Positions 1-16,047 of a DNA stretch of 16,047 nucleotides are shown here, one piece after another. The notes under the pieces are model-generated. The model saw nothing but the letters and a program-made list of their open reading frames with translations, had not been told where the DNA came from and made no database searches. The stretch comes from Tolypothrix sp. NIES-4075. GTDB taxonomy: Bacteria; Cyanobacteriota; Cyanobacteriia; Cyanobacteriales; Nostocaceae. Where the stretch lies: the NCBI RefSeq assembly GCF_002218085.1, contig NZ_BDUC01000003.1, forward strand, positions 956,206-972,252, in the 5' to 3' direction. Within the stretch, counting starts at the first letter, position 1. Every line of letters begins with the position of its first letter. The position numbers were made by a program, and so were the translations under genes.

Positions 1-1784
1 TTACCGAGCGCAAACAAGCAGAAATTGACTTGCAAAATCTTGCCGAAAAGTTTTCTAAGGCTTTTCGTTGCAGTCCAAATGCAATTACCATCAGCACGGT
101 GGAAGATGGACGCTTCATAGAAGTTAACGACAGTTTTGTGAAACTCTCAGGTTATGAACCAGAAGAAGCGATTGGACGTACTGCTTTTGAGTTGAATATT
201 TGGGTCAACCAGAGCGATCGCCAAAAATTATTGCAGGAGTTGCATTCCCAAGGAGCAGTTCGCAATCTGGAATTTGAATTTAGAAAAAAGTCTGGCGAAG
301 TTGCTTTTGCAATGGTTTGCGCCGAAATAATTGATTTGAATGGTGAGCGTTACATTCTGTCTGTCAATCATGATATCACACAACGCAAGCGAACAGAAGC
401 GCAATTACAATTGACATCACAGCGCGATCGCTTGTTAACAGAAACTTTAGCCCGAATTCGCACTTCGCTCAACTTAGACCAAATTCTCCAAACTACTGTA
501 AACGAAGTCCGACAATTTTTGCAAGCAGACCGAGTTTTTATTGGTCTAAATGATGGTAATAAAGAAGGCAGAATTCTCGCAGAATCAGTAGATCCAAAGT
601 ATTCATCAGTTATAGACTGCAAAATTAAAGATCCAGTTGTCATCCAAGAAATGAAAAGACTACTGACAACTAATAAAGTGCGTGTGGTGGAAGATATCGA
701 GCAAATCGATGTATCTCCCACTCTTAAAGCACATTATCAACAATTTCAAACGCGGGCAACTTTAGCAGTCCCAATTATGTTAAATGGTGAATTCTTTGGA
801 GCGTTGATTGCTAATCAATGTTCTCATCCTCGCCATTGGCATCAAATGGAAATTGATTTACTAAAACAAATGTCAGAACAATTAGCGATCGCCATTCAAC
901 AAGCTCAACTATACCAAGAATTGGCAGCACTCAATACCAATTTAGAACAACAAGTAGAAGAACGTACCGCTCAGTTACAGCAGAAAATGCAAGAACTGCA
1001 AGAAATCAATCGAGTTAAAGATGTTCTGTTACACACAGTTTCTCACGATATGCGAACTTCAGTCATGGGTAATTTGATGGTGCTAGAGAATTTGCTTAAA
1101 AGTGGGGGAGTCGGGAGTGGGGAGTGGGGACAAGGGGGACAAGGGGGACAATTCCCAATTCCCAATTCCCAATTCCCAATTCCCAATTCCCAAATCCCCG
1201 TATCTCGCTCAATTATCGAACGAATGATACAAGGTAATCAGCGCCTGTTAGGAATGATTAACTCCTTACTAGAGCTTCATTCCAGTGAAGAACAAGGAAT
1301 TGTGCTGCATCGCGAACTTGTGCAATTTGGTACACTGTTGCCGACTGTGATTAGAGATTTGCAGCCAATGCTGTCAGAAAACAAAGTGACTTTGAAGAAC
1401 TTGGTTCCCAAAGATTTACCGTTAATTATGGCAGATTCGACTAAGTTGCAACGAGTTTTGCAAAATTTGTTGACTTATAGTTGGCTGCACAACCCACCGG
1501 GATTAAACTTGACTTTGAAAGCGACAGTTGAGGATCGGATGATTCGCGTTCAAATTCAAGATAACGGTGTGGGGATGAACAAGTTAGAATGTGCGAGGCT
1601 ATTTGATTTGTTTGTCCGCGATCCTCAAGCTCGTTCTTCAACTTGCACAGGCTTAAAATTATATATTTCTCGACAAATAATTAAAGCACATCAAGGTGAA
1701 ATTGGCGTTAAAAGTAACCCCAAACGCGGTTTAACTTTCTGGTTTACCTTACCTTTGGCAAATTTGCCGACAACGAGCCGCTGA
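1..1784 (+). CDS. Multi-sensor PAS/GAF histidine kinase, 5'-truncated by window edge
   Basis: Frame 3 is open from nt 3 ([10 protein letters not shown]..., a typical PAS-end linker), so the listed TTG at 30 is probably internal. Domains in order: a PAS domain ([15 protein letters not shown]...[10 protein letters not shown]), a GAF domain ([16 protein letters not shown]...[20 protein letters not shown]), a coiled coil, H-box [10 protein letters not shown]1 box DNGVGM, and C-terminal GEIGVKS...GLTFWFTLP. Stop TGA at 1782-1784. Confidence 0.9.
1101..1199. repeat. STRR-like tandem short repeats inside the kinase coding region
   Basis: Read directly: AGTGGGG-type heptamer x4 (1101-1129), ACAAGGGGG x2 (1130-1147), AATTCCC x6 perfect (1150-1191) plus a degenerate copy. 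Translated in frame as [32 protein letters not shown]. Confidence 0.9.
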
Positions 1785-1930: not shown

Positions 1931-3691
1931 ATGAATACCGTCATCAAAAAACTGCAAAAGTGTTGCAAAACAGCCATATGGGGAAAAATATCAACAACAG
2001 ATGCAATTTTCGGCGAGTATAAAGCTTGGCGCGATCGCTTTTTGTGGCAAAGGTTACATTTAGGAATCTGGATCGCTATTCTCTGCGTATTTACATTTAT
2101 CTTACGCGACATCTTGCAACAGGTGTTTCACCTGCAAGAAATCCCAAAGATACCGCATGAGATTAAAAATCTCGCTTTAACTATCAATAGCTGCATATTT
2201 CTCTGTTTATTAGTGTGTTTGTTTTTACATAAAACTAACATTGCGCGTCGTTATCCGGGGCGCCTTTTTTTATGTTTATCTTTTTCTGTCACTTTAGTTG
2301 AGCAATTTGTCGCTACCTTCAAAGGTTTCGCTCTCCCCGATCAATTAGCTTGGATTATTGCCTTTTTGACTCAAGCGATGCTGATTCCAATTCGCTGGTA
2401 TCTGCATCTGGGATCGCAGTTGGGAGTGGTACTTTATTATTTTGTCGTAAATAGCGTCTTAGGGCTGAAACTACCCCCACCATTCAGTAAAGAGCCGATA
2501 TTCGGTGTAACGCTGATTATGTTGATATTTTGGGTATGTTTCATCTGCGATTTAGGAGTATTTTTATACGAAAAGCTGCAACGCTCTGAATTTTACGCTC
2601 GTAAAGAACTTGAGATTGCTAACGAGAAATTAACGGTTACAGAAGCTAAATATCGAAATATCTTTGAAAACGCGGTTGAGGGAATTTTTCAAAGCACTGC
2701 TAATGGTCGTTACATTACCGCAAATCCCGCATTAGCACGTATTTATGGTTACGCATCCCCAGAAGAAGTGACGACATTAATTGACATTGAACATCAATTA
2801 TATGTTGACCCAAATCGCCGTGCTGAGTTTGTCCGCTTAATTGAACAGTATGGTAGCGTATCCGAGTTTGAATCGCAAATTTATCGTCGCGATGGTAGCA
2901 TTGTTTGGATATCAGAAAATGCATATGCAGTTCGCAATTCCAGGGGACAACTGCTTTATTACGAAGGAATGATTGAAGATATCACCAAGCGCAAGCAAGC
3001 GGAAGAAGCGCTAAGAGTATTTTTTCATGCAGTTTCCCACGACTTACGCAACCCGGTGCTGGGTACTTTAATGGTGCTGAGAAATTTGCTATCGCGTTCA
3101 GAGGACAAAATAGCTGTTTCCCGCTTCATTTTAGAGCGCATGGAACAAAGTAGCGATCGCCAACTTAGTTTAATTAATTCGTTAATGGAAGCTCATATGA
3201 GCGAAGTTCAAGGCGTAGCTTTACAACTTCAGCCAGTAGAATTATTAAAAGTCGTAGAAGCAGCGATCGCAGACTTAAAGCCGATGCTAACAGAAAATCA
3301 GGCGTTGCTGATAAATCAAGTCACCGCAGATTTACCGATAATAAATGCCGATCCTACCCAATTATGGCGAGTTTTCTCTAACTTGATTGTTAATGCAGTC
3401 AAACATAATCCCCCAGGATTAACAATTACCATTAATGCCAGCGTCCATGATGATAAGATTTGTTGCAGTGTCGTTGATAACGGCGTGGGAATGAGTCAAA
3501 AACAAAGCGATCGCTTATTTGACCTTTACTTTCGAGGTAGCCACGCCCGGAATTCTATTAGTTTAGGATTAGGCTTATATCTATGTAAGCAAATCATCAC
3601 CGCACATGGCGGCGAAATTGGCGTTAAAAGTGCAATCAATGCCGGGGCGACTTTTTGGTTTACACTACCTATATTTAAAGCTAACAAATAG
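1931..3691 (+). CDS. Membrane-anchored PAS sensor histidine kinase
   Basis: 586-aa ORF. The N-terminal ~210 aa contain several hydrophobic helices. These are followed by a PAS domain (YRNIFENAVEGIFQS...YEGMIEDITKRKQAEE), H-box HAVSHDLRNP, N-box NLIVNAVKHNPPG, G1 DNGVGM, G2 GLGLYL, and GEIGVKS...GATFWFTLP. It is a paralog of the upstream kinase in the DHp/CA region. Confidence 0.9.
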   Translation: MNTVIKKLQKCCKTAIWGKISTTDAIFGEYKAWRDRFLWQRLHLGIWIAILCVFTFILRDILQQVFHLQEIPKIPHEIKNLALTINSCIFLCLLVCLFLHKTNIARRYPGRLFLCLSFSVTLVEQFVATFKGFALPDQLAWIIAFLTQAMLIPIRWYLHLGSQLGVVLYYFVVNSVLGLKLPPPFSKEPIFGVTLIMLIFWVCFICDLGVFLYEKLQRSEFYARKELEIANEKLTVTEAKYRNIFENAVEGIFQSTANGRYITANPALARIYGYASPEEVTTLIDIEHQLYVDPNRRAEFVRLIEQYGSVSEFESQIYRRDGSIVWISENAYAVRNSRGQLLYYEGMIEDITKRKQAEEALRVFFHAVSHDLRNPVLGTLMVLRNLLSRSEDKIAVSRFILERMEQSSDRQLSLINSLMEAHMSEVQGVALQLQPVELLKVVEAAIADLKPMLTENQALLINQVTADLPIINADPTQLWRVFSNLIVNAVKHNPPGLTITINASVHDDKICCSVVDNGVGMSQKQSDRLFDLYFRGSHARNSISLGLGLYLCKQIITAHGGEIGVKSAINAGATFWFTLPIFKANK

Positions 3692-4105: not shown

Positions 4106-5476
4106 TTACAAATTTTGACCTGTGTAAATCGATCGCACTTCGCCGTTGCGACGCACAACAGCTTCACCCTTACTCACTTCCACTAAAGTCCAACCGCTAG
4201 AGCCAATGCTTTCACCCACATCGATGCGACGTGTCACCCCATCGATTTTAAACAAAGCCGCAGATTTATCACCTAACTCTAGCAATCCTTCCAAAGTATG
4301 GGTAGGAGCCGCAACAGTTTCCACATATGCCTGTTTTTCTACAATTTTTGGCTCTTTTGGCGTTGGCTCTTTCGGTGCTGTGGCTGCGGGTAGTTTTGGT
4401 GGTGCAGCTTGAAAAGCAGTAACTTTTAACACAGGTAAAGGATTAGACGGTTGTCGCAAAGTAATCGGTGCAGTTCGCACAGCCACAGGCTTGAGTTCTG
4501 TTCGCACCGAAGCCGCCACCATATTTACAGGCACGGGTTTAGCTGGTTTGGGGACAGATTTTAAAGCCTTTTTTACTGGTGTCGGTTTAGATGCGTGAGA
4601 AGGCATCGCCGATAAAAATTTCGGAACCCCAGCAATTGGCGGTGGCGCATAGCGCATTGGTTGCGGTGCTTGATAAACGGGGATGTAGATCCGCTCGACG
4701 ATGGTTGTGCGGGGTGCGGCGGGGGTTGTATTATTAGCGGTGAGAACTGGTGGTAAATTACCGCCGGCTGCTGGTTTTATTGTTGGGGTAACATAAGCAA
4801 AAGCTGTTTGGGTAGGAATTACCGTAGTGGCGATCGCACTTTTGGGAGATTTTTGAGAGCTTTTTGCTTCTTGTCTGTCGATGATTGCCAGCGCTCCCAA
4901 CATATATTGAACTAAATCTGCCTCCACTTCAACTTTGGCAGGCAATTGAGACTGTAATTGCGGCTTTTGAATCGATTGCTCGATCAATTTAGAATTTATC
5001 CGGTAAATTAGTCCAGAGTTGAGCAAAAAGATAATACCAGCGATCGTCACGCCTAAGGTAGCTCCAAAAGACAGCAATTTGCCCCAAGCAATCCGCGCTT
5101 TGCGATGCTTTTTACTGACTGATTTAGTTGCACCCGGTGCGCCTACCACAACTTTACTCAATTGCTTTCTATTTTGAGAAGCTGTTTGTATCGGTGGTGA
5201 TGTTTCGGGTAAAACGATTTGCGATGTTCTCGGCGTGGGGATGACAAATTCTGGATACAGCGCTCTTTGCAAGTCCTCTATACTACTTCGCGATGCGCGA
5301 CTGCTGTAATGTATTGTTTGGGAAGGCATCCCATTACTATGCAAAATATTGTCAATATCGGCAAACAGTTCATCCATAAAGCCATCAGCATATGACTCTA
5401 TCGACCAGGGTTCGCTGCCGATCAGTTCTTCTGAGGGTTCCGGAATTATAAGATGGGTGCTGGCTTGTTGTGACAT
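4106..5476 (-). CDS. Hypothetical proline/alanine-rich single-pass membrane protein
   Basis: 456-aa ORF with an acidic N-terminal region and one hydrophobic helix (LLSFGATLGVTIAGIIFLLNSGL). A long P/A/T/V-rich low-complexity segment follows, then a compact C-terminal ~60-aa domain (LFKIDGVTRRIDVGESIGSSGWTLVEVSKGEAVVRRNGEVRSI). No family recognised with confidence. Confidence 0.7.
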   Translation of the reverse strand: MSQQASTHLIIPEPSEELIGSEPWSIESYADGFMDELFADIDNILHSNGMPSQTIHYSSRASRSSIEDLQRALYPEFVIPTPRTSQIVLPETSPPIQTASQNRKQLSKVVVGAPGATKSVSKKHRKARIAWGKLLSFGATLGVTIAGIIFLLNSGLIYRINSKLIEQSIQKPQLQSQLPAKVEVEADLVQYMLGALAIIDRQEAKSSQKSPKSAIATTVIPTQTAFAYVTPTIKPAAGGNLPPVLTANNTTPAAPRTTIVERIYIPVYQAPQPMRYAPPPIAGVPKFLSAMPSHASKPTPVKKALKSVPKPAKPVPVNMVAASVRTELKPVAVRTAPITLRQPSNPLPVLKVTAFQAAPPKLPAATAPKEPTPKEPKIVEKQAYVETVAAPTHTLEGLLELGDKSAALFKIDGVTRRIDVGESIGSSGWTLVEVSKGEAVVRRNGEVRSIYTGQNL

Positions 5477-5719
5477 AGCGATTTTAAGTTGTGGCTTTTG
5501 GGACGATAGAGTTCGCCTATACTGCCTGAAAGTATGGATTTTGCCTATTTCTATCCAATAAGAGCGTTCAAACTAGACAAGTTGATTGTCTAAGTAGTAT
5601 GAAATGTCAACTTTAAACCGGAAACTGCTGATAATGCCAGTTTTGAACTAATGTCATCTATCATACCAGCCTCTTCCGGTTTCACCCTACTACTATACTC
5701 ATCCTTTATGAAGTTTATT

Positions 5720-7642
5720 TTAAGCTAAGGCAGAAAACTCCTTCGGTGTCTTGTTCCTACGTAATTCTAAATATAGTAATAGGGCATTGACATCAGCAGG
5801 ATTAACACCTCCTATACGTGCTGCTTGTCCGATTGTCAGTGGTTTTACGGTGTTTAATTTTTCTCGCGCTTCTTTAGATAGGGTATCAATCGTTGCGTAG
5901 TCTAAATCTCCCGGCAATTGACGGTGTGCTTGGCGGGCTATTTGGTCAATTTGATTTTGTTGGCGTTGTAAATACCCGGAATACTTAATGTCAATTTCCG
6001 CACCTTCTTTTTCCGCAGTTTTTAAGTTGGGGTTGCCGATTTGATATCTATCGAGGTCAGTGTAATGGAATCCCGGACGCCGTAGCAAGTCAGCTAAGGT
6101 GATTGAACCTTTGATTGCTTGTTGAGTACCGGAGGCGATCGCCTGTCCGATTTCTGAGTTTTCTTTCACCCGCGTTGCGTACAGCCGTTCTTTTTCGGCA
6201 GTAATATTCTCTTGCTTGCGGGTAAATAATTCCCAGCGGCGATCGTCAATCAAACCAATTTCTCGTCCCAAAGGTGTTAAACGTTGGTCGGCGTTGTCAG
6301 ATCGCAGTATTAACCGATACTCAGATCTACTCGTAAGCATACGGTATGGCTCGCGTAAATCCTTGGTACACAAGTCATCTAACAGAGTACCGATGTAACT
6401 TTCCTCACGAGAAAAAACAATCATTTCGCGATCGCGCACAAACCGCGCTGCATTAATTCCCGCCACAATTCCTTGTGTCGCGGCTTCTTCATAGCCAGTT
6501 GTACCATTAATCTGTCCCGCACAAAACAACCCAGCAACTTTTTTAGTCATCAATGTGGGATAACACTGAGTCGCGGGTAAGTAATCGTACTCAACCGCAT
6601 AAGCTGGGCGGAGCATGGTACAATTTTCCAAACCAGGAAGACTCCGCAACATCAAAAGTTGTAAGTTTTCTGGCAAGCCTGTAGAAAACCCTTGAATGTA
6701 AAGTTCGGGAATATCTCGCCCTTCTGGTTCAATAAAGATTTGGTGGCTTTCCTTATCAGCAAAGCGGACAATTTTATCTTCAATACTCGGACAATATCGC
6801 GGTCCTTTAGCTTCCACCCAACCACCATAAACCGGCGACAAATGCAAATTTTCTCGAATTAGGCGATGAGTTTCCGGCGTCGTCCGGGTAATATGGCAGG
6901 GCATTTGTTCTCTTTCTACCCACACATCTGGGTCAAAGCTAAACCAGCGGACTTCTTCATCCCCAGGTTGCGGTGACATTTTACTGTAATCTACAGACCG
7001 CTTGTCAACTCGTGCCGGCGTTCCGGTCTTTAATCGTCCGGTTTCAAATCCCAAGCGATTGAGAGTTTGTGTCAATCCTTCAGCGGCAAATTCTCCAGCG
7101 CGTCCCGCTGCCATCGACTTGTTACCAACCCAAATTCGTCCGCCTAAAAACGTTCCTGTGGTCAAAATCACCGCTTTACAGGCAAAACCGACACCAAAGT
7201 AAGTTTCTACGCCGATAACTTCATCGTTTGCGCCTAAAACTAAATCCGTCGCCATTGCTTCGCGGATTGTTAAGTTTTCTTGATTTTCAACAACATTTTT
7301 CATTAACGCCGCGTATTCCCGCTTGTCAGTTTGAGCGCGTAAAGCCCAAACCGCAGGTCCGCGTGAAGAATTGAGAATCCGCTTTTGTAAGTAGGTGCGG
7401 TCTGCGATTTTACCGATTTCCCCGCCGAGTGCATCCACCTCATGGGTCAACTGAGATTTTGCCGGACCACCCACCGCTGGGTTGCAGGGTTGCCAAGCGA
7501 TTTTATCCAGGTTAAGTGTCAGCAGCAGGGTACGACAACCCAAGCGGGCGCTAGCGAGGGCTGCTTCGCAACCAGAGTGACCTGCACCGACGACAATGAC
7601 ATCGAAAGCGTCTTGGAATTCAATGGAATTGTGCATGGTCAT
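5720..7642 (-). CDS. mnmG: tRNA uridine 5-carboxymethylaminomethyl modification enzyme MnmG (GidA)
   Basis: 640 aa. N-terminal FAD-binding fold [15 protein letters not shown]. Family-typical blocks [27 protein letters not shown] and LTSRSEYRL. Full-length colinearity with MnmG/GidA. Confidence 0.97.
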
Positions 7643-7781: not shown

Positions 7782-8663
7782 ATGATAAAACGATTTTGGC
7801 GAAAAAGTTCTTTTATTAGTATTTTTATTTTTATAGTTTTTGCTTTAGTTGCTAGTAATGGAATTACTCATCGGACATTAAGTACAGATATCCGACAATT
7901 GCAAGATTGTTTAAATGCTCGTTCTTCAGGTCGTTATAGAGATTTAAATAAAGTTTGCCCAAATACATCACAACCAATAGTTTCACCAACTCCACTTTTG
8001 CCGCAAATACCCGATGCAAATTTGCCGGAACCACAGCGTTTTTTGAGTGCGATCGCACATCAATTACCAACAATTCCCCAACCCGGTACTTTTGAATATA
8101 TTTTGTTGAGAGCATACGGTGCTGCATTTGTAAATCAACAACCAGAAATTAAACTACCGCAAAAAGTTATTTTGGCTAACGAGCAAGAAACGAAAGCTTT
8201 CCAAACTACTTTAACAATGGGGAAAGTAAATGGTACTAATGACTGTTATTTACAAAAATCAGCAGCAGATGCTTTCAATAAAGCCAAATCAGCAGCAAGA
8301 ATTTCGCTCAAATCTGGTTATGGGGGTAGTGATTGTACTCGCACTTTTGCGACAAATTTAAGATTCTGGAGAAAATACGCTAATAACAATACTTTGGAAC
8401 GAGTAAGACTTGGTAAAGAAACAGCAATTTTAGGTGTAGTTGCACCACCTGGAGCATCACAACATCTCTGGGGATTAGCGATTGATTTACAGGTTTCTAG
8501 TCAAGTGCAAAGACAAGCTTTAAATAAAAATGGTTGGTTTCAAACTGTAGAAAATGATGTCCCACATTGGACTTATGTGGGTTTAACGGAAGAAAATTTA
8601 CCGTTATTTGGGTTGAAAAACAAAATCGTCAGGGGAACTACTTATTGGTTGATACCTCTATGA
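7782..8663 (+). CDS. M15/VanY-like (LAS family) D-alanyl-D-alanine carboxypeptidase-type metallopeptidase
   Basis: 293 aa with an N-terminal signal-anchor (SSFISIFIFIVFALVASNG). Zinc-ligand pattern SxHxxGxAxD (SQHLWGLAIDL) plus a downstream His (VPHWTY). Confidence 0.75.
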   Translation: MIKRFWRKSSFISIFIFIVFALVASNGITHRTLSTDIRQLQDCLNARSSGRYRDLNKVCPNTSQPIVSPTPLLPQIPDANLPEPQRFLSAIAHQLPTIPQPGTFEYILLRAYGAAFVNQQPEIKLPQKVILANEQETKAFQTTLTMGKVNGTNDCYLQKSAADAFNKAKSAARISLKSGYGGSDCTRTFATNLRFWRKYANNNTLERVRLGKETAILGVVAPPGASQHLWGLAIDLQVSSQVQRQALNKNGWFQTVENDVPHWTYVGLTEENLPLFGLKNKIVRGTTYWLIPL

Positions 8664-8967: not shown

Positions 8968-9513
8968 TTACTGCGATTGATATGGTGAATCTACAAAAGT
9001 GAGAAGTTGAAGTTGATTATTTTCCCATTTATAGTAATATTTACCAATTCCCTTTTGTCCATCACTACCCCCTGCTTGACCGATAATTATTAATAGCCTG
9101 CTATTAGCTTTGTAGTGCAACCCACCGTCAGGTCTTGGAGGAGTGTATCCAGCACCGCGTTGATCGTGATAGCCGTGCAGTTGTGGAGGCAAATATATTT
9201 TACCAGTCTTTAAATCGACTATCCCCGCACTGCCGACACCACCCATTGCCCGATCTAGATAAGCGATCGCATAGTGTCCGGCAAAATTTGTGCCTTTTTT
9301 AATACCTTCTCTTAATTGAGGTGCGTAATCTTGTTCTTCTTGGGTGTTGACAACAAGAGCAGCAGGCTTACCCTTATATACTGGATTTGCCGGATAATTC
9401 TGATATTGTTGTTGTGGCGCTGCCAAAACTGATAAAGTCGGAGCGACTACACCCAAACCGATGATGGTAGTCAAAGCGGCAATACTCAAGCTACGTTGTA
9501 ACATTTTCGGCAA
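8968..9513 (-). CDS. Secreted hypothetical protein
   Basis: 181-aa ORF with a clear signal peptide (MPKMLQRSLSIAALTTIIGLGVVAPTLSVLAAPQ). No recognised catalytic motifs. Confidence 0.7.
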   Translation of the reverse strand: MPKMLQRSLSIAALTTIIGLGVVAPTLSVLAAPQQQYQNYPANPVYKGKPAALVVNTQEEQDYAPQLREGIKKGTNFAGHYAIAYLDRAMGGVGSAGIVDLKTGKIYLPPQLHGYHDQRGAGYTPPRPDGGLHYKANSRLLIIIGQAGGSDGQKGIGKYYYKWENNQLQLLTFVDSPYQSQ

Positions 9514-10321: not shown

Positions 10322-11890
10322 GTGGCTCGTACCCCCACATTAACTTTTGATCGCGGCACATTAATTTTACATCCACCAGCGCGGGGCAAAGGTTGGATGG
10401 ATTACGCTACGTGGGATGATAGAGTAGAAAAATTCCGCATTCCGGCGATTCAATATCGACTTTTAGTAGAAGCGCTACAAGCGGAAGAGACTAATTTTAT
10501 CGATGAAGCGAAGGCATTTCATCCGGTAGAGTTGGCTGCGAGTATGGAAATGGAACCCTATCCCCATCAAAGTGAGGCATTAGCAGCTTGGAAACTGGCA
10601 GGAAGACAGGGGGTAGTGGTGCTGCCCACAGCGGCTGGAAAGACTTATCTGGCGCAAATGGCGATGCAAGCAACACCGCGCACGACGCTGATTGTGGTGC
10701 CTACTTTAGATTTGATGCATCAGTGGTATGCACATTTGATGGCAGCGTTTCCTGATGCTGAGGTGGGGTTGTTGGGGGGTGGATCGCGAGATAAAACTCC
10801 GATACTGGTTGCGACTTACGACAGTGCGGCAATTCACGCAGAAAGTTTGGGGAACAAGTATGCTTTGGTGATTTTTGATGAGTGTCATCATTTGCCAACT
10901 GATTTTAATCGGGTGATTGCGGAATATGCGATCGCACCCTATCGACTCGGACTGTCTGCAACACCGGAACGCACTGATGGCAAACACGCTGATTTAAATA
11001 TCCTCATTGGTAAAGAAGTATATCGCAAACGCGCTGAAGATTTGGCGGGGAATGCGTTAGCAGAACATCAAGTTGTGCAAATTAAGGTGAAGCTATCGCA
11101 AGTTGAGCGAGAAAGATACAATCAATTAATTCAAACTCGCAATGATTTTTTGAAGCAATCAAAGATTTCTTTGGGTAGTTTGAAAGGTTGGCAAAACTTT
11201 GTGCAAATGAGTGCGCGATCGCCTGCTGGACGTCGAGCTATGTTAGCACACCGTCAAGCGAAAGAAATCGCTTTGGGTACAGATGGAAAGTTGCGAATTC
11301 TCACGAATTTACTTGCGGAACATTATCCAGAAAGAATTTTGATTTTTACGGCTGATAATGCGACTGTTTACAGGATTTCTCAAGAGTTGTTAATTCCGGC
11401 AATTACTCATCAAACTCCTGTGAAAGAACGCCATGAAATATTAACCAAATTTCGGGAGGGGGAGTATAAAAGTTTGGTTGCTTCTCATGTGTTGAATGAA
11501 GGTGTTGATGTGCCGGCGGCAAGTATTGCGATTATTTTATCGGGTACTGGTTCGGCGAGGGAATATATTCAACGTTTGGGGAGGGTTTTAAGGAAGGGTA
11601 ATATCGCAAATAAGCAGGCGATTTTGTATGAGGTGGTGGCTGAGGATACGAGTGAGGAGAATACTTCGGCAAGGAGGAGGGGGGAGAGGAGTAACGAACC
11701 GCCAAGGCGCCAAGAACGCCAAGAGAGGAAGGATAAGAGAGGGAATTTGCATGTTGTTTATGGAAGTGGTCAGAAAAGTGATTATAAGGCTGCTGAACAG
11801 ATGGAAATTAAGTATTCTGTTGAGAAGAAAGCTAAAACATCCAAGGAAAAGAATGTAGATTCAAAAGACTCATCAGAACCAATAAACTAA
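10322..11890 (+). CDS. XPB/Ssl2(ERCC3)-type SF2 DNA helicase with basic low-complexity C-terminal tail
   Basis: GTG start. N-terminal XPB-like damage-recognition-type domain (LTFDRGTLILHPP...WDDRVEKFRIPAIQY). Helicase motifs: I LPTAAGKT, II FDECHH, III SATPERTDGKH (equivalent to the XPB RED-motif position), V/VI VLNEGVDVP and QRLGRVLR. The last ~75 aa (RRRGERSNEPPRRQERQERKDKRG...) are a lineage-specific tail containing CGCCAAG-type short repeats. Confidence 0.88.
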   Translation: MARTPTLTFDRGTLILHPPARGKGWMDYATWDDRVEKFRIPAIQYRLLVEALQAEETNFIDEAKAFHPVELAASMEMEPYPHQSEALAAWKLAGRQGVVVLPTAAGKTYLAQMAMQATPRTTLIVVPTLDLMHQWYAHLMAAFPDAEVGLLGGGSRDKTPILVATYDSAAIHAESLGNKYALVIFDECHHLPTDFNRVIAEYAIAPYRLGLSATPERTDGKHADLNILIGKEVYRKRAEDLAGNALAEHQVVQIKVKLSQVERERYNQLIQTRNDFLKQSKISLGSLKGWQNFVQMSARSPAGRRAMLAHRQAKEIALGTDGKLRILTNLLAEHYPERILIFTADNATVYRISQELLIPAITHQTPVKERHEILTKFREGEYKSLVASHVLNEGVDVPAASIAIILSGTGSAREYIQRLGRVLRKGNIANKQAILYEVVAEDTSEENTSARRRGERSNEPPRRQERQERKDKRGNLHVVYGSGQKSDYKAAEQMEIKYSVEKKAKTSKEKNVDSKDSSEPIN

Positions 11891-11907
11891 TAACTAACCA
11901 CTATCCA

Positions 11908-11975
11908 TGTACAGACGCGATTAATCGCGTCTCTACTTCTAACTTTGTACAGACGCGATTAATCGCGTCTCTACT
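11908..11975. repeat. Two direct copies (period 38 nt) of a 30-nt palindromic small dispersed repeat
   Basis: TGTACAGACGCGATTAATCGCGTCTCTACT occurs at 11908-11937 and again, identical, at 11946-11975. Each contains the perfect 20-nt palindrome AGACGCGATTAATCGCGTCT. The pair lies in the 107-nt spacer between the helicase and nuclease genes. Confidence 0.9.
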
Positions 11976-11997
11976 AACCAACAACTAACAAATTCAA

Positions 11998-13212
11998 ATG
12001 TTACCAACAGATTTACTGATTCATCGTCAAAATGGGGAGGAGATAATTCCGAAGAGACTTAAGCTTGATAAGAATACTTTGGAGTTAGCTGTTGAGTTAA
12101 TTGATTGTTTTCGAGAAGCGGTAGGAAAGACGCAAGGTGTTCTTGAGCGTCAGTTGTTGGAGTTGGAGGGTGATTCTACTGATTATAAGGTGAAGCGGGG
12201 ATTGGCTTATATTTTAAAAGGCAGTTTTTGCACTTTTGAGGTGGTGAGTCCTTTGGAACCTCAAATGTTACGAGAAAGGGTGTTTGCTTTGTCTGCAATG
12301 TCTGTTTCTAGTCCGCAATCAACGCAGGCTACACTTAGCAAGATTGCTGATGAATTAAGTCATGAATTTGAGCGGGAAGTTTTACCGCAACAAGTTCATG
12401 ATGGGTTATATGCTGATTTAAGTGAAAATAAGATTTTTATTAGTTTTGATGCACCTACTCCTGAAGATTTGTTACATCGATATAATTTATCTCAAGTGCA
12501 GGGTGTGTTTTATCGGGCAAGTCAACTTACTTTAAATGCTCATCGTAATGTTCCGGGTGAATATAAGCTTTTGTTTCGCTATTTGAAGCTGTTTCAATTG
12601 ATGGCTTATATTGAGGGTGATGCTGACCACGGCTTTACAATTACGATTGATGGTCCGACGAGTTTGTTTAATCCTAGCACGCGATATGGTTTGGCGATCG
12701 CTAAACTTATTCCCGCTTTACTTCATGTCACCAGATGGAGTCTTTCTTCTATTCTCCAAACTCGCGATTTTTATACTAATAGTTGGAAAACTGGACGTTT
12801 CACTCTCAATTCTGAATGCGGTTTGGTGTCTCATTATCCACCTGGCAAGCCTTACGATAGTATGTTGGAAGCGTCTTTTGCTGATAAGTGGGATTCGTTA
12901 AAAAGTGATTGGGTGTTGGAGAGAGAAGTTGATTTAGTTCCGATTCCTGGTAGTGTGATGATTCCTGACTTTCGTTTGGTACATCCTGATGGACGCACGT
13001 TTTTATTAGAAATTGTCGGTTATTGGCGTCCAGAATATTTACAAAAGAAGTTTTCCCAAGTGCGACGTGCGGAACGTGATGACTTAATTTTGGCAATTTC
13101 TGAAAGATTAAATTTGGAAAAAGCGGGTGTGAAATTAAATGATGTCCCCGCTAGAATTATTTGGTTTAAAGATAAGTTATTGCCGAAGGCAGTATTAGCA
13201 GCGTTGGAGTAA
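11998..13212 (+). CDS. Bax1-like (DUF790 family) endonuclease, partner of XPB helicase
   Basis: 404 aa located directly downstream of the XPB-type helicase. The N-terminus (LPTDLLIHRQNGEEIIPKRLKLD) and overall layout match my recollection of DUF790/Bax1. The C-terminal region carries a PD-(D/E)xK-like signature (MIPDFRLVHPDGRTFLLEIVGYWRPEYLQKK). Confidence 0.8.
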   Translation: MLPTDLLIHRQNGEEIIPKRLKLDKNTLELAVELIDCFREAVGKTQGVLERQLLELEGDSTDYKVKRGLAYILKGSFCTFEVVSPLEPQMLRERVFALSAMSVSSPQSTQATLSKIADELSHEFEREVLPQQVHDGLYADLSENKIFISFDAPTPEDLLHRYNLSQVQGVFYRASQLTLNAHRNVPGEYKLLFRYLKLFQLMAYIEGDADHGFTITIDGPTSLFNPSTRYGLAIAKLIPALLHVTRWSLSSILQTRDFYTNSWKTGRFTLNSECGLVSHYPPGKPYDSMLEASFADKWDSLKSDWVLEREVDLVPIPGSVMIPDFRLVHPDGRTFLLEIVGYWRPEYLQKKFSQVRRAERDDLILAISERLNLEKAGVKLNDVPARIIWFKDKLLPKAVLAALE

Positions 13213-13216
13213 TTAT

Positions 13217-13459
13217 ATGAAAACTATTCAAACAATTGCCACGGTTACAGCAGATGGGAAAATTACCTTGCAGTTACCTGCTGATATTCCCCCAGGTGAA
13301 CATCAAGTGGTGGTGATAATTGATGAAAAGCCTTTGGTAGAGAAAGTACAGACGAAGGAAAAGCGAATGCCGCTGAACTTTCCGGTAGACAGTTACGGTT
13401 CTTTTCCTGAAAATCTTTCTTTGAGACGTGAGGATATGTATGATGACTGGGGACGCTAA
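13217..13459 (+). CDS. VapB-like antitoxin, copy 1 (its cognate PIN gene is truncated)
   Basis: 80 aa starting 4 nt after the nuclease stop. The N-terminal beta-rich putative DNA-binding segment (IATVTADGKITLQLPADIPPGEHQVVVIID) resembles AbrB/SpoVT-type antitoxins. It overlaps the start of a PIN reading frame. It is a paralog of 13577..13816. Confidence 0.65.
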   Translation: MKTIQTIATVTADGKITLQLPADIPPGEHQVVVIIDEKPLVEKVQTKEKRMPLNFPVDSYGSFPENLSLRREDMYDDWGR

Positions 13460-13580
13460 CTCTATTTTTCTGGACACAAATATCCTCGTTTATGCTAATG
13501 TTCCTGAATATCCTTTACACTTGGTTGCTATAAACGCAATTCAAAGTTATGAACAAAGCAGTATTGGAGTAATTATATGA
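13440..13580 (+). pseudogene. Truncated PIN-domain (vapC) remnant
   Basis: 46-codon ORF MMTGDANSIFLDTNILVYANVPEYPLHLVAINAIQSYEQSSIGVII*, below the ORF-track size cut-off. Its first ~37 aa parallel the intact PIN protein at 13797 (MMTGDANSVFLDTNILVYASQTQFPFHQAAMQAIQSF). Homology stops at about 13549, where sequence resembling the nuclease 3' end begins. Confidence 0.75.
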
Positions 13581-13816
13581 AAGCTATTGAAACAATTGCG
13601 ACGGTAACAAGTGATGGGAAAATTACGTTGCAGTTATCGGCTGATATTCCCCCTGGTGAACATCAAGTGGTGGTGATAATTGATGAAAAATTGTCAGAAA
13701 AGGAAGTAATTAAGAAAAAGCGTCCTCCGTTGGATTTTCCTGTACATAATTGCGGTCTTATGCCCGAAAATCTTTCTTTAAGACGTGAGGATATGTATGA
13801 TGACTGGGGACGCTAA
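13577..13816 (+). CDS. VapB-like antitoxin, copy 2
   Basis: 79 aa, paralog of copy 1. It overlaps the downstream PIN gene by 20 nt, which is typical type II TA coupling. Confidence 0.7.
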   Translation: MKAIETIATVTSDGKITLQLSADIPPGEHQVVVIIDEKLSEKEVIKKKRPPLDFPVHNCGLMPENLSLRREDMYDDWGR

Positions 13817-14249
13817 CTCTGTTTTTCTGGACACAAATATTTTGGTATATGCTAGTCAAACTCAATTTCCGTTTCACCAAGCTGCTATGCAGGCTATCCA
13901 AAGTTTTTATGATGCGGGGGCTGAGTTGTGGATTAGCCGACAAGTATTGCGCGAATATCTAGCTACTCTCACTCGTCCTCAACAATTTACCGAGCCAATG
14001 CCGATTGAAATATTGGTTCAGGATGTCCGCTATTTCCAAAATCGCTTTCGAGTAGCTGAAGATAATTTGCTGGTAACAGAAAGACTTTTATCTTTAATGT
14101 CAGAAATTCCCAGTGGTGGCAGGCAAGTACATGATGCTAATATCGTCGCCACGATGTTAGTTTACCATATTCCGCAGTTATTAACTCACAACACTGGAGA
14201 TTTTGCCAGATTTTCTACATTAATTACTGTATCGCCATTGCAAGCGTAG
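13797..14249 (+). CDS. vapC: PIN-domain ribonuclease toxin VapC
   Basis: PIN acidic signature in order: FLDTNILVYA (Asp), SRQVLREYL (Glu), VHDANIVATM (Asp), THNTGDF. ATG codons at 13797/13800 are preferred over the upstream GTG at 13785 listed in the track. Confidence 0.85.
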   Translation: MMTGDANSVFLDTNILVYASQTQFPFHQAAMQAIQSFYDAGAELWISRQVLREYLATLTRPQQFTEPMPIEILVQDVRYFQNRFRVAEDNLLVTERLLSLMSEIPSGGRQVHDANIVATMLVYHIPQLLTHNTGDFARFSTLITVSPLQA

Positions 14250-14284: not shown

Positions 14285-14352
14285 TGTTTCCGAAATATAC
14301 TGAGATAAAGAGGTAGGTACAATAAAATATATTTGGGATTCTGGGTTAATTT

Positions 14353-14730
14353 ATGGAACCTGCTACACTAACAGCAGCTGCGATCGCTACTTTACTCATC
14401 ACCAAGGCTTTTGAAAAAACTGGTGAAATTATCGGCGAAAAGACTTGGCAGGAAGGCGAGAAGTTGCTAGAACTGCTCAAGGAAAAAGAACCCAGCACCG
14501 CAAATGATATACAATTAGCCCAGCAGCAAGCTCTAGATTACGGTCAAGCTCATTTAATTGGACAGCAAGTTGAGCAAGCTGCAAACAAACATCCGGAAAT
14601 TCGGCAAGCTGTCGCAACTGTGGCAAAGGAAGCCGAACCTAAATTAACAACATCTATTATTGAAAATTGGCAAGGTATCAACGTTAAAGGCGGAAATAAT
14701 ACTATTTCTGGCAATACCTTCAATTTTTGA
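14353..14730 (+). CDS. Small helical protein with hydrophobic N-terminal helix and N/G-rich C-terminal tail; putative effector-type N-terminal module of the downstream NLR-like protein
   Basis: 125-aa ORF. It has an N-terminal hydrophobic helix (MEPATLTAAAIATLLITKAF), then a charged helical region, then the tail IIENWQGINVKGGNNTISGNTFNF. It ends at TGA 14728-14730, which is in the same frame as the NB-ARC ORF that follows. Confidence 0.6.
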   Translation: MEPATLTAAAIATLLITKAFEKTGEIIGEKTWQEGEKLLELLKEKEPSTANDIQLAQQQALDYGQAHLIGQQVEQAANKHPEIRQAVATVAKEAEPKLTTSIIENWQGINVKGGNNTISGNTFNF

Positions 14731-16047
14731 CTACAGCCGTCGGAACGGGAACCGACAAAGTTAAATCCCCTCAACAAAATACCAGATAATTTGCCCTGGA
14801 GTGGGGCTACGGAGTTCGTCGGGCGTGAAAAAGAACTCGCACGCCTCCACCAATTATTGCAGGAAAATGATTCTGTTGCGATCGCTGCCGTTGTGGGTAT
14901 GGGTGGTGTCGGTAAAACTGAACTAGCGTTGCAATATGCACTTTTACACCGGGAATTTTACTCTGGGGGGATTTGTTGGTGTGGGGTGAACAGCGGTGAT
15001 GTCGGTTTCCAGGTGGTGCAATTTGCTCGCACTCACCTTGATTTAAACCCGCCCACTGATTTTAATTTAATCGACCAGGTAAAATACTGTTGGCGGCACT
15101 GGCGTGGTGGTAATGTTTTGTTAGTGCTGGATAATGTCAATAAATATAAAGAAATTGAGCCTTATTTACCGCCGCCATCCTCCCGGTTTAAGGTGTTGCT
15201 GACTTCCAGAAAGCACTTCGGGCAGATTAAGAAGTTATCATTAAATGTATTGCAACCACAAGCCGCGTTGGAATTGTTGGGAAATCTCGTTGGGGAAGAA
15301 CGGGTTAATGTAGAGACGCGAAATTTCGCGTCTCTACCCGAAAGATTGGGATATTTACCTTTAGGAATAGAGTTGGTAGGGCGCTATCTCGCCAGAAAAC
15401 AAGATTTATCCCTGGCAGAAATGTTACAAAGGTTGGAGAAAAAGCGACTCAAAGAACGTTCTTTGTCTCAACCAGAAGAAGACATGACAGCACAGCGGGG
15501 TGTGGAAGCAGCCTTTGAGTTAAGTTGGGAAGAATTAACTGACAACGATAAGCAACTCGCCTGTTTGCTGAGTTTATTTGCTGCTGCACCGATACCTTGG
15601 CAGTTGGTAGAATCTTGTTTACCCGATGTGGATGCAGACGAGTTAGAAGAAAGTCGGGACGACAAGCTGCTGACTTTGCATTTACTCCAGCGCAAGCAAA
15701 AGGGAATTTATCAATTGCATCCACTGCTGCGAGAATTCTTTCAAGCGAAGTTAGAACCCCAACTTTTTCTGGGAAGTTGGGGAAATCTTCAATATGCTCT
15801 TGCCACACGCATGATAGCAGTTGCCAAGTATATTCCTCATGACGCCACCCTTGAGAAAATTACCGCCGTCGCCCCCGCCATACCTCATTTAGCAGAAGTA
15901 GCGAAGAATCTGATTCAATATGTTAGCGATGAGGATGTATTCTGGGCTTTCTACGGTAATGCTGCATTTTACAATGGTCAAGGGTTGTATGACAAGGCAG
16001 AACCTTGGTTTAAGCAGTGTCTCGAAGTCACAAAAAAACGCTTGCCA
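14731..16047 (+). CDS. NB-ARC/TPR STAND NTPase (NLR-like), 3'-partial; no ATG start, contiguous in frame with 14353..14730 across one TGA
   Basis: My own translation of frame 1 is open for 439 codons from 14731 to the window end; this ORF is not in the supplied track. Motifs: FVGREKELARLHQLL, Walker A GMGGVGKTELA, Walker B-like VLLVLDNV, LLTSR, GYLPLGIELVGRYLA, then TPR-like FYNGQGLYDKAEPWFKQCLEV. The only plausible independent start is TTG at 14791. The first in-frame ATG (14899) lies inside the P-loop. Confidence 0.85.
15310..15337. repeat. Perfect 28-nt palindromic small dispersed repeat embedded in frame in the NB-ARC coding region
   Basis: GTAGAGACGCGAAATTTCGCGTCTCTAC is its own reverse complement. 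It belongs to the same family as the 11908/11946 copies, sharing GTA-AGACGCGA...TCGCGTCTCTAC. It encodes VETRNFASLP just upstream of the GYLPLGIEL motif. Confidence 0.9.

Follow-up and report, generated by a model that had tools for sequence, protein, structure and literature searches.

What does a single in-frame stop codon do between a small protein and the NLR-type frame that follows it? The stretch of DNA analyzed here (the window, 16,047 nucleotides from Tolypothrix sp. NIES-4075) ends in such an arrangement. An ORF check confirmed a 125-codon ORF, encoding 125 aa, from the ATG at 14353 to the TGA at 14728–14730. The rest of the initially annotated layout also held: the NB-ARC/TPR frame is the same as that of the 125-codon ORF and has no stop in its 439 codons between 14731 and the window end (16047), and only this one stop (TTT TGA CTA CAG) parts the two ORFs.

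The initial annotation offered three readings: a recent pseudogene or a sequencing error, two genes of which the second has a non-canonical start, and a leaky stop. Programmed read-through is rare in cellular bacterial genes. Judging from sequence comparison, we nevertheless give a probability of about 0.65 to programmed read-through of this UGA, which would yield mostly a free Bell-BASS7 effector and a little Bell-BASS7-NLR sensor.

Locus and encoded proteins

The small protein matches GAX42346.1 / WP_089128126.1 exactly. No terminator was found between the two ORFs, and a promoter/terminator scan gave nothing above chance. The features discussed below are collected in Table 1.

Table 1. Features at the Bell-NLR junction, in window coordinates
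Feature	Position	Strand	Basis
Bell-domain/BASS7 effector ORF, terminated product	14353..14730, stop included	+	ORF and homologs
Globular all-alpha Bell domain (predicted), residues 3–94	14359..14634	+	AlphaFold2
BASS7-type amyloid signalling motif (predicted), IIENWQGINVKGGNNTISGNTFNF	14656..14727	+	Match to Dyrka 2020 Table S2
In-frame UGA then CUA, proposed read-through site	14728..14733	+	Comparative conservation
Possible outer helix containing the stop codon, UGACU 14728–14732 / AGUUA 14759–14763	14728..14763	+	RNAalifold
Pseudoknot stem 1, GUCGG 14739–14743 / CCGAC 14752–14756, loop AACGGGAA	14739..14756	+	RNAalifold, covariation
Pseudoknot stem 2, loop GGGA 14747–14750 / UCCC 14766–14769	14747..14769	+	By-eye proposal, covariation
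28-codon linker LQPSEREPTKLNPLNKIPDNLPWSGATE, UGA to NB-ARC start	14731..14814	+	Frame 0 open; lengths whole-codon
TTG, rival separate NLR start codon	14791..14793	+	Used by gene callers in relatives
NB-ARC NTPase and first TPR repeats; sensor continues past the window end	14815..16047	+	Pfam

The N-terminal module, unassigned in the initial annotation, can now be identified as a Bell domain with a BASS7 amyloid motif. It is 76% identical over all 125 residues to RCJ33357.1, which is the exact small protein of one of the related loci (L007) and the Nostoc Bell exemplar in Fig. 1C of an earlier survey (Dyrka 2020, 10.1101/2020.01.06.895854). Homologs of the small ORF form 122 clusters of 86–163 aa each, all stand-alone. 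AlphaFold2, given a 30-sequence alignment, predicts helices at residues 3–16, 19–23, 29–45, 47–58, 63–79 and 81–94 (mean pLDDT 72), and this all-alpha model and the family alignment together have the conserved hydrophobic N-terminal helix of a Bell domain. The helix, MEPATLTAAAIATLLITKAF, matches the ‘MEPIS-motif’ region, and the family N-terminus MEP(A/V)(T/S)LTAAAIATL is nearly invariant; a conserved MEPIS-motif and a pore-lining helix 1 have been described for Bell (Ibarlosa 2024, 10.1101/2024.11.07.622273). Because a Foldseek search of the model against the PDB, a library that may lack the Bab structure, gave no match at E ≤ 0.001, Bell membership rests on sequence. Bell folds vary extensively in topology (Ibarlosa 2024). 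Pfam, NCBIfam and PADLOC gave no useful match to the small ORF; the sole family match, to an isoprenyl transferase (E = 0.056), was rejected as spurious.

The C-terminus carries a predicted amyloid signalling motif, present in a single copy at this locus: ENWQGINVKGGNNTISGNTFNF is identical at 18 of 22 residues to the Bell-side BASS7 of AKG20974.1 and PAX60321.1 (Dyrka 2020, Table S2). Residues 109–125 are predicted to be disordered (AlphaFold2 pLDDT below 50), and the closing ...TFNF is nearly invariant in the family. Among the motifs of that survey, experiments covered only BASS1 and BASS3 (Dyrka 2020).

The downstream frame has an NB-ARC domain (Pfam, E = 3e-16, residues 33–247) with P-loop GMGGVGKT at 14896–14919, followed from near 15937 on by matches to TPR_12, TPR_10 and TPR_1 (residues 403–436) that are weak because the window ends. 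This order, NB-ARC with P-loop and then repeats, is that of an NLR/STAND NB-ARC-TPR protein. Orthologous downstream ORFs run for 500–1050 codons with many TPR_12 and TPR_10 repeats, and the NLR part is under purifying selection (pN/pS 0.20–0.26). PADLOC matched the NLR only to PDC-S27 (E = 0.0019 over ~50 residues), so we do not count it as a member of a catalogued defence system. Directly after the UGA the frame begins LQPSEREPTKLNP..., with neither BASS7 nor ATG. At the protein level, the NLR would carry the same motif as the Bell protein, as in a two-gene pair, only if the UGA were read through.

Conservation of the junction

The same junction occurs in ~75 related loci of Nostocales, Microcystis, Coleofasciculaceae and other cyanobacteria, with Bell identity down to ~40%. 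The loci mix paralogs and orthologs, with several copies of the Bell-UGA site per genome, and counts are not counts of independent events. A UGA followed by a long frame-0 ORF is found at 63 of 80 related genome loci, and two more decayed copies retain the junction; the UGA and in-frame layout is also present in all 8 metagenome pattern matches and in two tandem second copies. The orthologous loci were informative on the point the initial annotation had raised: relatives keep TGA at the stop position and have no sense codon there. Sense-codon fusions are absent from the 122 homolog clusters and from the 150 best 50%-identity representatives. Longer Bell homologs of 213–823 aa, obtained by a profile search, were considered as sense-codon versions and rejected, having other architectures instead. 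The syntenic ortholog (L092, ~90% nucleotide identity) keeps the TGA with 757 open codons behind it. Sequence support at the window TGA comes from a Logan assembly (L094, DRR315874) that is identical over 976 nt and may share reads with the reference.

Relatives with two clearly separate genes are built differently. In all 10 of these, the stop is TAA or TAG, and the NLR lies in frame +1 or +2, starts at its own ATG 7–71 nt past the stop and carries at its N-terminus a further copy of the motif that ends the Bell protein (e.g. L062, L071). UGA-type NLRs lack a motif of their own, and no start codon is conserved among them. The UGA junction joins Bell in frame not only to NB-ARC-TPR but also to NACHT-HEAT, nSTAND1-WD40 and one further P-loop STAND. 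Across these loci, selection appears to keep both termination and frame.

The nucleotides of the junction are constrained beyond shared ancestry. TGA stands at 63 of 63 in-frame junctions with C as the +4 base in 61; codon +1 is CTA in 55 (against a 9.6% share of CTA among the Leu codons of these ORFs), codon +3 is TCG or CCG in 60, and a Phe codon precedes the UGA in 59. Long ORFs of these loci end in TGAC in just 9 of 397 cases (2.3%). Over TGA plus 12 nt, pairwise identity is 0.87; at 4-fold sites in the Bell ORF it is 0.54. Synonymous sites are constrained for ~60 nt past the UGA: synonymous divergence is 0.08 in codons 1–11, where third positions are the most conserved, 0.17 in codons 12–20 and 0.34–0.50 further on. 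Of the stop codons, UGA is the leakiest, and prfB uses UGA-C as its slippage site (PMC5289835).

Two other ways of passing such a stop were rejected. Reinitiation directly after it does not serve as a general mechanism, the next codon being CUA rather than the better near-cognate CUG (55 versus 4 loci). The +1 frame shuts within ~11 codons in the window and is stopped in 51 of 53 loci, so frameshifting of the prfB kind cannot reach the NLR. Two loci, L072 (UGA GUG) and L074 (UGA AUG), are the only ones that look like ordinary stop-start coupling.

RNA structure and linker

A covarying H-type pseudoknot, with stems of 5 and 4 bp, starts 8 nt 3′ of the UGA. Stem 1 was predicted independently by RNAalifold and is paired in 99.5% of cells over 41 sequences. 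One of its pairs changes from CG to UA in 5 sequences; another does so in 7 and turns from CG into GC in 3, and the window itself has a compensated variant of the consensus GCCCG/CGGGU. Stem 2 is paired in 98.2% of cells; its pair 26–48 changes from GC to AU in 5 sequences of at least four lineages, and pair 27–47 does so in one. Because stem 2 was proposed by eye, the slid-partner control is biased in its favour. Over the whole pseudoknot, 4 of 9 pairs show double changes, a value that 7 of 500 shuffles reach; the number of doubly changed cells is 21, which none of the 500 reaches. The possible outer helix is paired in 96.6% of cells and varies by one-sided GU/GC changes only, with no compensatory pair. 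The window junction has a minimum free energy of −9.2 kcal/mol (z-score −0.4) and is no stabler than shuffled sequence; it is covariation alone that makes the case for RNA structure here.

A covariance model of the element, searched against 958 kb, matched Bell-stop junctions only. An Rfam scan of 14300–15000, judged by E-value, returned chance-level matches, with no SECIS and no other family. The pseudoknot is missing from a set of 15 closely related Nostoc loci (type B), which retain UGA-CUA and, in every case, a nearby TTG. A site of programmed read-through is expected to combine a stop conserved across diverged homologs with an open, selected downstream ORF, and a conserved leaky context with a 3′ RNA structure at recoding distance. 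Both combinations are found here, the pseudoknot being absent from the type B loci.

The linker between UGA and NB-ARC is 23–28 codons long and gains or loses only whole codons. Frame 0 has no stop in any of 53 loci; stops occur in frame +1 in 51 and in frame +2 in 47. The absence of stops among the observed linker variants is weakly significant (P ~0.05). In the two-gene locus L062, a translated linker, SQSERAKLNPP, comes after the NLR-side BASS7, and the linker behind the UGA is homologous to it. Only from around the 21st codon past the UGA, near the TTG position, do substitutions look coding; those in codons 1–20 are RNA-like rather than protein-like (pN/pS 1.7 and 0.70). The codon-substitution test thus indicates RNA-level constraint and fits read-through and separate initiation alike; codons 1–20 could therefore be an untranslated leader.

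Candidate start codons for the NLR bear on the same question. The initial annotation was right that no ATG lies upstream of the P-loop (the first is inside it). Past FVGR and ahead of the P-loop there are one more TTG and one GTG. TTG 14791 is the first in-frame canonical start ahead of the NB-ARC N-terminus (FVGR, 14815). A TTG stands at this position in most loci and TTA or CTC in others (~1/4 of the pseudoknot-bearing loci). Six of 53 loci lack any canonical start in frame ahead of FVGR (L036, L053, L060, L068, L070 and L076). Called NLR genes start at the equivalent codon in L081 and L092, and at a Met within the P-loop GMGGIGKT in Microcystis.

Alternative explanations

The strongest competitor is a pair of separately translated genes, with the NLR initiating at TTG 14791 or a nearby near-cognate codon, the ~60 nt including the pseudoknot serving as an untranslated leader or translational-coupling element, and the shared frame a by-product of spacing. 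We regard it as unlikely, though some of the data speak for it: the TTG is present in the window and most loci, where gene callers choose it, type B loci always retain it in the absence of the pseudoknot, and the change from RNA-like to coding-like substitutions falls close to it. Cyanobacteria also often initiate without a strong Shine-Dalgarno sequence. The start is poorly conserved, however, given the TTA and CTC variants, the six loci with no canonical start before FVGR and the absence of one before the P-loop in Microcystis. The NLR would also be left with ~8 residues before NB-ARC and no amyloid motif, whereas the two-gene relatives all carry one. Separate initiation leaves unexplained the constant use of UGA-C, with UAA and UAG never in its place, the whole-codon indels, and a frame 0 that continues open past the UGA into STAND classes of three or four unrelated kinds. 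The 8-nt spacing, finally, anchors the structure to the stop and not to a TTG ~20 nt past the structure. The two-gene reading of the initial annotation thus comes out weakened. Its leaky-stop reading gains support, since the TGA is kept with no sense codon while true two-gene relatives use TAA/TAG, another frame, their own ATG and their own motif, and since UGA-CUA followed 8 nt on by a covarying pseudoknot is a typical layout of recoding signals.

Other kinds of recoding (selenocysteine insertion with a SECIS-like hairpin, ribosome hopping from Phe to Phe, or an opal-suppressor tRNA) are together improbable. A UGA with a stem-loop that holds the stop in its base does resemble a bacterial SECIS and the T4 gene 60 take-off site, RNAalifold and covariation support a structure at the junction, and hopping could use the Phe codon before the UGA and the downstream Phe codon offered by FVGR. 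For selenocysteine, however, neither a SECIS model match nor a Cys-containing homolog was found: the linker around the site is variable, homologs show a stop or gene boundary at that point, and a genome holds several copies. Cyanobacteria are reported to lack the Sec trait. Hopping would not call for a linker that stays open and in frame, as this one does, and ARAGORN found no tRNA gene within the window. Least credible of all, with very little probability left to it, is a decaying or accidental stop, arising from a sequencing error or from a nonsense mutation that split a once all-in-one Bell-NLR gene, with a functionless downstream frame. A few copies are clearly decaying, with extra stops in Bell (L020, L028) or a truncated or rearranged downstream part (L030, L069, L064), and all-in-one Bell-NLR architectures are known in general (Dyrka 2020, methods). 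The same TGA recurs, however, in ~75 loci of many genera, including the syntenic ortholog, and in a second assembly; the downstream ORFs are open for 500–1050 codons at pN/pS ~0.2; and no sense-codon ancestor or relative was found. These observations refute the pseudogene or sequencing-error reading of the initial annotation.

Proposed mechanism

Programmed read-through of the UGA would work as follows. Ribosomes would make the 125-aa Bell-BASS7 protein and mostly stop at UGA-C, releasing a free, latent membrane-attacking effector. A minority would decode the UGA with a near-cognate tRNA, most likely inserting Trp, favoured by the weak UGA-CUA context and the H-type pseudoknot 8 nt downstream. 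These ribosomes would cross the 28-residue linker into the NB-ARC-TPR frame and produce a rare Bell-BASS7-NB-ARC-TPR sensor. Since read-through gives Bell-BASS7 and the fusion from one frame, a single motif copy would be enough for the two partners, and the ratio of sensor to effector would be determined by the stop codon. By analogy with characterized systems, ligand-driven oligomerization of the sensor may gather the BASS7 motifs and nucleate an amyloid fold, which may template the BASS7 tails of abundant free Bell, free the N-terminal helix and kill the cell, as abortive infection or regulated cell death. STAND NTPases (Avs) are established antiphage sensors. We infer the read-through itself, its efficiency, the inserted amino acid and the downstream signalling steps from the features of the locus and its relatives.

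The odds seem slightly better than even for a wider proposal, in which UGA-CUA plus pseudoknot is a dedicated cyanobacterial read-through signal, convergent with those of eukaryotic RNA viruses. It would act as a portable joint between a Bell/BASS effector and interchangeable STAND sensors (NB-ARC, NACHT, nSTAND1), keeping the free effector abundant and the fusion rare and letting one motif be both template and substrate; the ratio set by the stop might be tuned through RF2 activity or stress.

If read-through is correct, the junction would be among very few programmed events of this kind in cellular bacterial genes, read-through having so far been mainly a viral trick. To our knowledge, no earlier case has had a pseudoknot stimulator, and none has concerned immunity or cell death. 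The lack of a motif-bearing NLR partner for many cyanobacterial Bell proteins would then have an explanation, at loci to which pair-based BASS screens are blind, and NLR annotations that start at an arbitrary TTG or ATG, some inside the P-loop, would need correcting. It would also be a compact route to a low sensor-to-effector ratio with one shared motif, bearing on the interconversion of two-component and all-in-one NLRs, and the 45-nt element would be a ready test case for read-through rules on bacterial ribosomes.

Comparison with known systems

Literature searches that paired read-through with Bell, NLR, Nostoc or pseudoknot turned up no earlier account of the junction. In form, it is close to type II viral read-through signals, in which UGA-CUA or UGA-CGG is followed by a structure ~8 nt downstream, as in alphaviruses and tobraviruses; the MuLV gag-pol signal has an 8-nt spacer and a pseudoknot (PMC3542737). 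The window likewise has UGA-CUA, a structure 8 nt 3′, a compact H-type pseudoknot and, as proposed, a fixed ratio of short to C-terminally extended product. The viral signals act on eukaryotic ribosomes and eRF1, whereas that of the window would need to act on the bacterial ribosome and RF2, in a cellular gene family. The stems in the window are short (5 and 4 bp), and the likeness to viral signals is in form only.

The E. coli prfB site reads UGA CUA C. Like this RF2 site (CUU UGA C), the window uses a weak UGA-C termination signal (PMC5289835). prfB differs in using a +1 frameshift with an upstream Shine-Dalgarno-like stimulator, whereas the +1 frame is closed in the window.

The nearest relatives in protein content are Bell/BASS-NLR pairs, closest among them the BASS7 pairs of Calothrix, Nostoc and Leptolyngbya (Dyrka 2020). 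The window shares with these the Bell family, the C-terminal BASS7, a same-strand NB-ARC-TPR frame directly downstream and the phylogenetic niche. In the pairs, however, the NLR is a separate adjacent or overlapping ORF with its own start and its own N-terminal BASS, which defines the pair, whereas the NLR of the window is motif-less, has no conserved start and lies in frame behind UGA-CUA and a pseudoknot. Such pairs signal via amyloid templating, which needs the motif on both partners (Dyrka 2020; Ibarlosa 2024). The available part of the supplementary tables of that survey, including the matched-pair table, lists neither RCJ33357.1 nor the window protein, and the survey makes no mention of stop codons or read-through (Dyrka 2020).

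The proposed logic, in which a small pore-forming helical effector ends in an amyloid motif and is switched on when an oligomerizing sensor from the neighbouring gene templates it with that motif, is that of E. coli Bab/Agp (Ibarlosa 2024) and fungal HET-S/NWD2. The Bab/Agp effector also has a conserved N-terminal hydrophobic helix of the MEP..S type. Bab/Agp differs in having a TGP/PIN sensor instead of an NB-ARC NLR, BASS11 as its motif and two independent genes, and it is experimentally proven, whereas the window is known from its sequence. As in all-in-one NLRs, the read-through product of the window would combine a Bell effector, NB-ARC and TPR in one polypeptide; unlike in those proteins, the conserved stop would make the free effector the main product.

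Reading frame and identity of the small protein

The 125-codon ORF ends in the context TTT TGA CTA CAG, and its frame stays open for 439 codons past the TGA, up to the window end. NB-ARC lies in this post-TGA frame (Pfam E=3e-16), and TPR repeats begin shortly before the window ends. The initial annotation was correct that the two parts share a frame with one TGA between them and that no ATG precedes the P-loop: the earliest in-frame ATG of the NLR is a Met within the P-loop, and a TTG is the sole canonical in-frame start ahead of FVGRE. The peptide that read-through would produce across the TGA is GGNNTISGNTFNF-X-LQPSER, where X is the residue inserted at the UGA (W, C, R, G, S, L or U).

The small protein, an exact match to GAX42346.1 / WP_089128126.1 (Tolypothrix sp. 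NIES-4075), had been left unassigned and can now be identified as a Bell domain with a BASS7 motif. It is 76% identical to RCJ33357.1, the small protein of the related locus L007, which has been shown as a cyanobacterial example of the Bell domain (Dyrka et al., bioRxiv 10.1101/2020.01.06.895854). An AlphaFold2 model has an all-alpha domain (residues 3–94) followed by a disordered tail. The N-terminus, MEPATLTAAAIATL..., matches the 'MEPIS' pore-lining helix region conserved in Bab and other Bell proteins (10.1101/2024.11.07.622273), and 18 of the 22 residues of the tail, ENWQGINVKGGNNTISGNTFNF, are identical to motifs that Dyrka et al. list as BASS7 (their Table S2). NCBIfam gives the small ORF merely a chance-level isoprenyl-transferase match (E=0.056). 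The JGI names of the Bell homologs P0001, P0039, P0056, P0088 and P0110, which include 'undecaprenyl pyrophosphate synthase', 'NADH dehydrogenase subunit G', 'YmfQ', 'MnmG/GidA' and 'transcriptional regulator', are evidently spurious.

The ORFs of 13217–14249, which immediately precede the Bell gene, look like a VapBC-type toxin-antitoxin pair; the syntenic ortholog L092 has the same PIN and small-ORF neighbours. The helicase and DUF790 genes (10322–13212) are an XPB/Bax1-type gene pair, with toxin-antitoxin and NLR genes in the neighbourhood.

Coordinates of features in the window and in related loci
Sequence	Feature	Position	Strand	Remark
Window	PAS/GAF histidine kinase, tandem	30-1784	+	
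Window	PAS/GAF histidine kinase, tandem	1931-3691	+	
Window	ORF	4106-5476	-	no Pfam match
Window	mnmG (gidA), tRNA modification	5720-7642	-	
Window	ORF	8968-9513	-	no Pfam match
Window	XPB-like helicase	10322-11890	+	XPB_DRD, ResIII, Helicase_C
Window	DUF790 protein	11998-13212	+	E=1.7e-158
Window	small ORF	13217-13459	+	
Window	small ORF	13577-13816	+	
Window	PIN-domain ORF	13785-14249	+	Pfam E=2.8e-8
Window	Bell/BASS7 ORF	14353-14730	+	ATG 14353, TGA 14728-14730
Window	candidate TTG start	14791		
Window	FVGR, NB-ARC N-terminus	14815		
Window	P-loop GMGGVGKT	14896-14919	+	NB-ARC frame
Type B loci	junction	near 6370-6430		
L020, L028	decaying Bell ORF and junction	6001-6380		
L082/L083	annotated NLR (Microcystis aeruginosa)	5574-7058		begins at P-loop ATG, 154 nt past Bell stop
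L030	second Bell-UGA-NLR unit, tandem	9387-9437		
L091	second Bell-UGA-NLR unit, tandem	8107-8157		
L091	in-frame partner other than NB-ARC-TPR	5186		

Conservation of the stop and the frame

With the small ORF as query, a search of 5.8 billion proteins gave 122 homolog clusters, every one stand-alone (86–163 aa) and the majority ending ...TFNF; no NLR fusion, and with it no sense-codon fusion, was found among the 122. A profile search against 1.84 billion representatives returned 472 hits. Among the best 150, 144 are at most 197 aa, and the six longer proteins have other architectures and are not fusions of this junction.

We compared 80 genomic loci from Nostoc, Tolypothrix, Calothrix, Scytonema, Brasilonema, Komarekiella, Aulosira, Microcystis, Coleofasciculaceae, Aerosakkonema and others. 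In 63 of them, a TGA-ended Bell-type ORF is followed in frame 0 by at least 150 open codons or an open frame to the contig end, although, the loci being related, fewer independent events than this must lie behind such counts. The TGA-to-P-loop distance is 147, 150, 153, 156, 159 or 165 nt and the linker 23–28 codons, whole codons in every case. A syntenic ortholog with about 90% nucleotide identity retains the TGA, with 757 open codons beyond. Two further loci (L020 and L028) still have NF-TGA-L at the junction, with the NLR frame behind it; their Bell ORFs are decaying copies, as judged from additional premature TAA stops.

A metagenome scan by junction pattern found eight more cases, and in each of them a STAND ORF follows in frame. 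Upstream, seven have a long ORF (98–171 aa) that either is of Bell type or has a similar tail rich in G, N and Q; the eighth, L089, has just 15 open codons there. A covariance model of the junction, scanned over 958 kb, found two additional tandem units and no match elsewhere than at Bell-stop junctions. These second units, in L030 and L091, carry different Bell C-terminal motifs, ...KNVFQGNTFNGTNIF and ...KNVFQGNTIIGGNF.

Purifying selection acts on the downstream ORFs (pN/pS 0.20–0.26); together with the conserved stop and frame, this refutes the earlier suggestion of a recent nonsense pseudogene or sequencing error. A separate Logan assembly, identical to the window across 976 nt, also has the TGA.

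At the same junction, Bell runs in frame into NB-ARC-TPR, NACHT-HEAT, nSTAND1-WD40 or another P-loop STAND, a range that would be difficult to account for were the frame irrelevant. The junction appears to behave as a portable joint. Partners other than NB-ARC-TPR (loci L078/L077/L075/L080, L067, L064, L034/L035 and L091) comprise NACHT-HEAT-NCC-H, nSTAND1-WD40, a PsbP-like domain, a 252-aa membrane-like protein that had no Pfam hit, and a P-loop STAND.

Sequence context and RNA structure

All 63 in-frame junctions have UGA as their stop and 61 have C after it, while TGAC makes up just 2.3% of long-ORF stops in the same loci. CTA comes next in 55/63, against its 9.6% share of Leu codons in those ORFs, and 60/63 have TCG or CCG as codon +3. 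Pairwise identity is 0.87 over the TGA plus 12 nt and 0.54 at four-fold sites of the Bell ORF, whose conserved Leu columns use three to six different codons. Synonymous divergence past the UGA is 0.08 in codons 1–11, 0.17 in codons 12–20 and 0.34–0.50 further on, and third positions are most conserved in the early post-UGA codons.

For 41 junctions, RNAalifold predicts a 5-bp hairpin beginning 8 nt past the UGA and an outer helix holding the UGA. Hairpin cells are 99.5% paired, with compensation from CG to UA and from CG to GC; the window has the compensated variant GUCGG/CCGAC in place of GCCCG/CGGGU. The hairpin loop GGGA can pair with UCCC 15 nt further on, giving a predicted H-type pseudoknot (loops L1 3 nt, L2 1 nt, L3 9 nt). 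The second stem, which was proposed by eye, is 98.2% paired, and six sequences belonging to at least four lineages have compensatory GC to AU changes in it. Double changes in the pseudoknot, which is short and thermodynamically weak, affect 4 of 9 pairs (matched in 7/500 shuffles) and 21 cells (0/500).

Two-gene relatives

Separately initiated NLRs do occur: ten of the 80 loci are clear two-gene relatives (L040, L041, L044, L055, L061, L057, L066, L065, L062 and L071), all with TAA or TAG, not UGA, as the Bell stop. In all ten, the NLR lies in frame +1 or +2, has its own ATG 7–71 nt past the Bell stop and repeats the Bell C-terminal motif at its start. In L062, for instance, Bell ends ...TTIENWKGINIKGGNSTINNPNFNF and the NLR begins MTTENWNGINIKGGNPVINISQSERAKLNPP.... 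UGA-type NLRs have neither the ATG nor the motif, and the post-UGA sequence LQSPERERVKLNP... is homologous, at the nucleotide level too, to the linker behind the NLR-side motif of L062. On this sequence evidence, a UGA-type NLR could carry the BASS motif required for this signalling solely as a translated extension of Bell. L072 (UGA GUG) and L074 (UGA AUG), exceptions among the UGA loci, look in sequence like ordinary stop-start coupling.

Read-through and alternative explanations

Programmed read-through is the best-supported mechanism, with a probability of about 0.65 on comparative evidence. The initial proposal of a leaky stop yielding free module plus fusion is supported to that extent by UGA-CUA, the pseudoknot and the frame. 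Termination at the UGA would give abundant free Bell effector and read-through a rare effector-motif-sensor fusion. The main rival, which we consider improbable, is that an NLR without the motif initiates separately behind a conserved regulatory leader. The first 20 post-UGA codons show no protein-level constraint, and a coding pattern begins at about the TTG; an untranslated leader would produce this, and so would a flexible linker that is translated and overlaps the RNA element. A no-stop test on the observed variants gave P of about 0.05. Selenocysteine at the UGA is unlikely: the Sec trait is reported absent from Cyanobacteria (PMC1794560), the junction region has no SECIS match and the UGA site is a variable linker.

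Separate initiation also draws on 15 closely related Nostoc loci ('type B': L002, L004-L007, L009, L011, L012, L015, L017, L018, L021, L022, L025 and L033), which keep UGA-CUA but in a variant 9 nt shorter (UGA-CUA-AAG-UCG, then a different stretch) that has lost the pseudoknot. The TTG stands 6–8 codons ahead of FVGR in all 14 of this linker length and is kept in L022, where the linker is one codon longer, whereas 12 of 34 pseudoknot-bearing loci lack it. Type B lineages may have shifted towards separate initiation or a lower read-through rate. Across the loci, however, the TTG is not conserved (many have TTA or CTC there), a canonical in-frame start ahead of FVGR is absent from six loci, and a separately initiated UGA-type NLR would be without the BASS motif needed for signalling. 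In Microcystis, the gene caller places the NLR start within the P-loop; in L082/L083 this is because no other canonical start is present, and it looks like an annotation artefact cutting the NB-ARC domain short.

Comparison with known systems

UGA is the leakiest stop, and the junction shares its weak UGA-C with prfB, which exploits it (PMC5289835). Like type II viral read-through signals, it combines UGA-CUA with a structure starting about 8 nt downstream, and like MuLV it has an 8-nt spacer before a compact pseudoknot (PMC3542737).

By homology, this locus belongs to a known kind of cell-death module, which signals through amyloid and has the make-up Bell/BASS7-NB-ARC-TPR. Its apparent gene structure, one frame with a conserved leaky UGA and a pseudoknot, is undescribed: searches of 8 million full texts turned up no mention of read-through or in-frame stops in Bell/BASS/NLR systems or cyanobacterial NLRs. 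In known systems, Bell-BASS effector and NLR are separate adjacent genes with a common motif (10.1101/2020.01.06.895854; 10.1101/2024.11.07.622273), C-terminal on Bell and N-terminal on the NLR, and the effector is activated through amyloid templating from the NLR (10.1101/2020.01.06.895854). Abortive infection has been shown for the E. coli Bab/Agp pair (10.1101/2024.11.07.622273). In Bell-BASS/NLR pairs the NLR is a separate gene with its own motif, whereas the NLR of the window has neither an ATG nor a motif.
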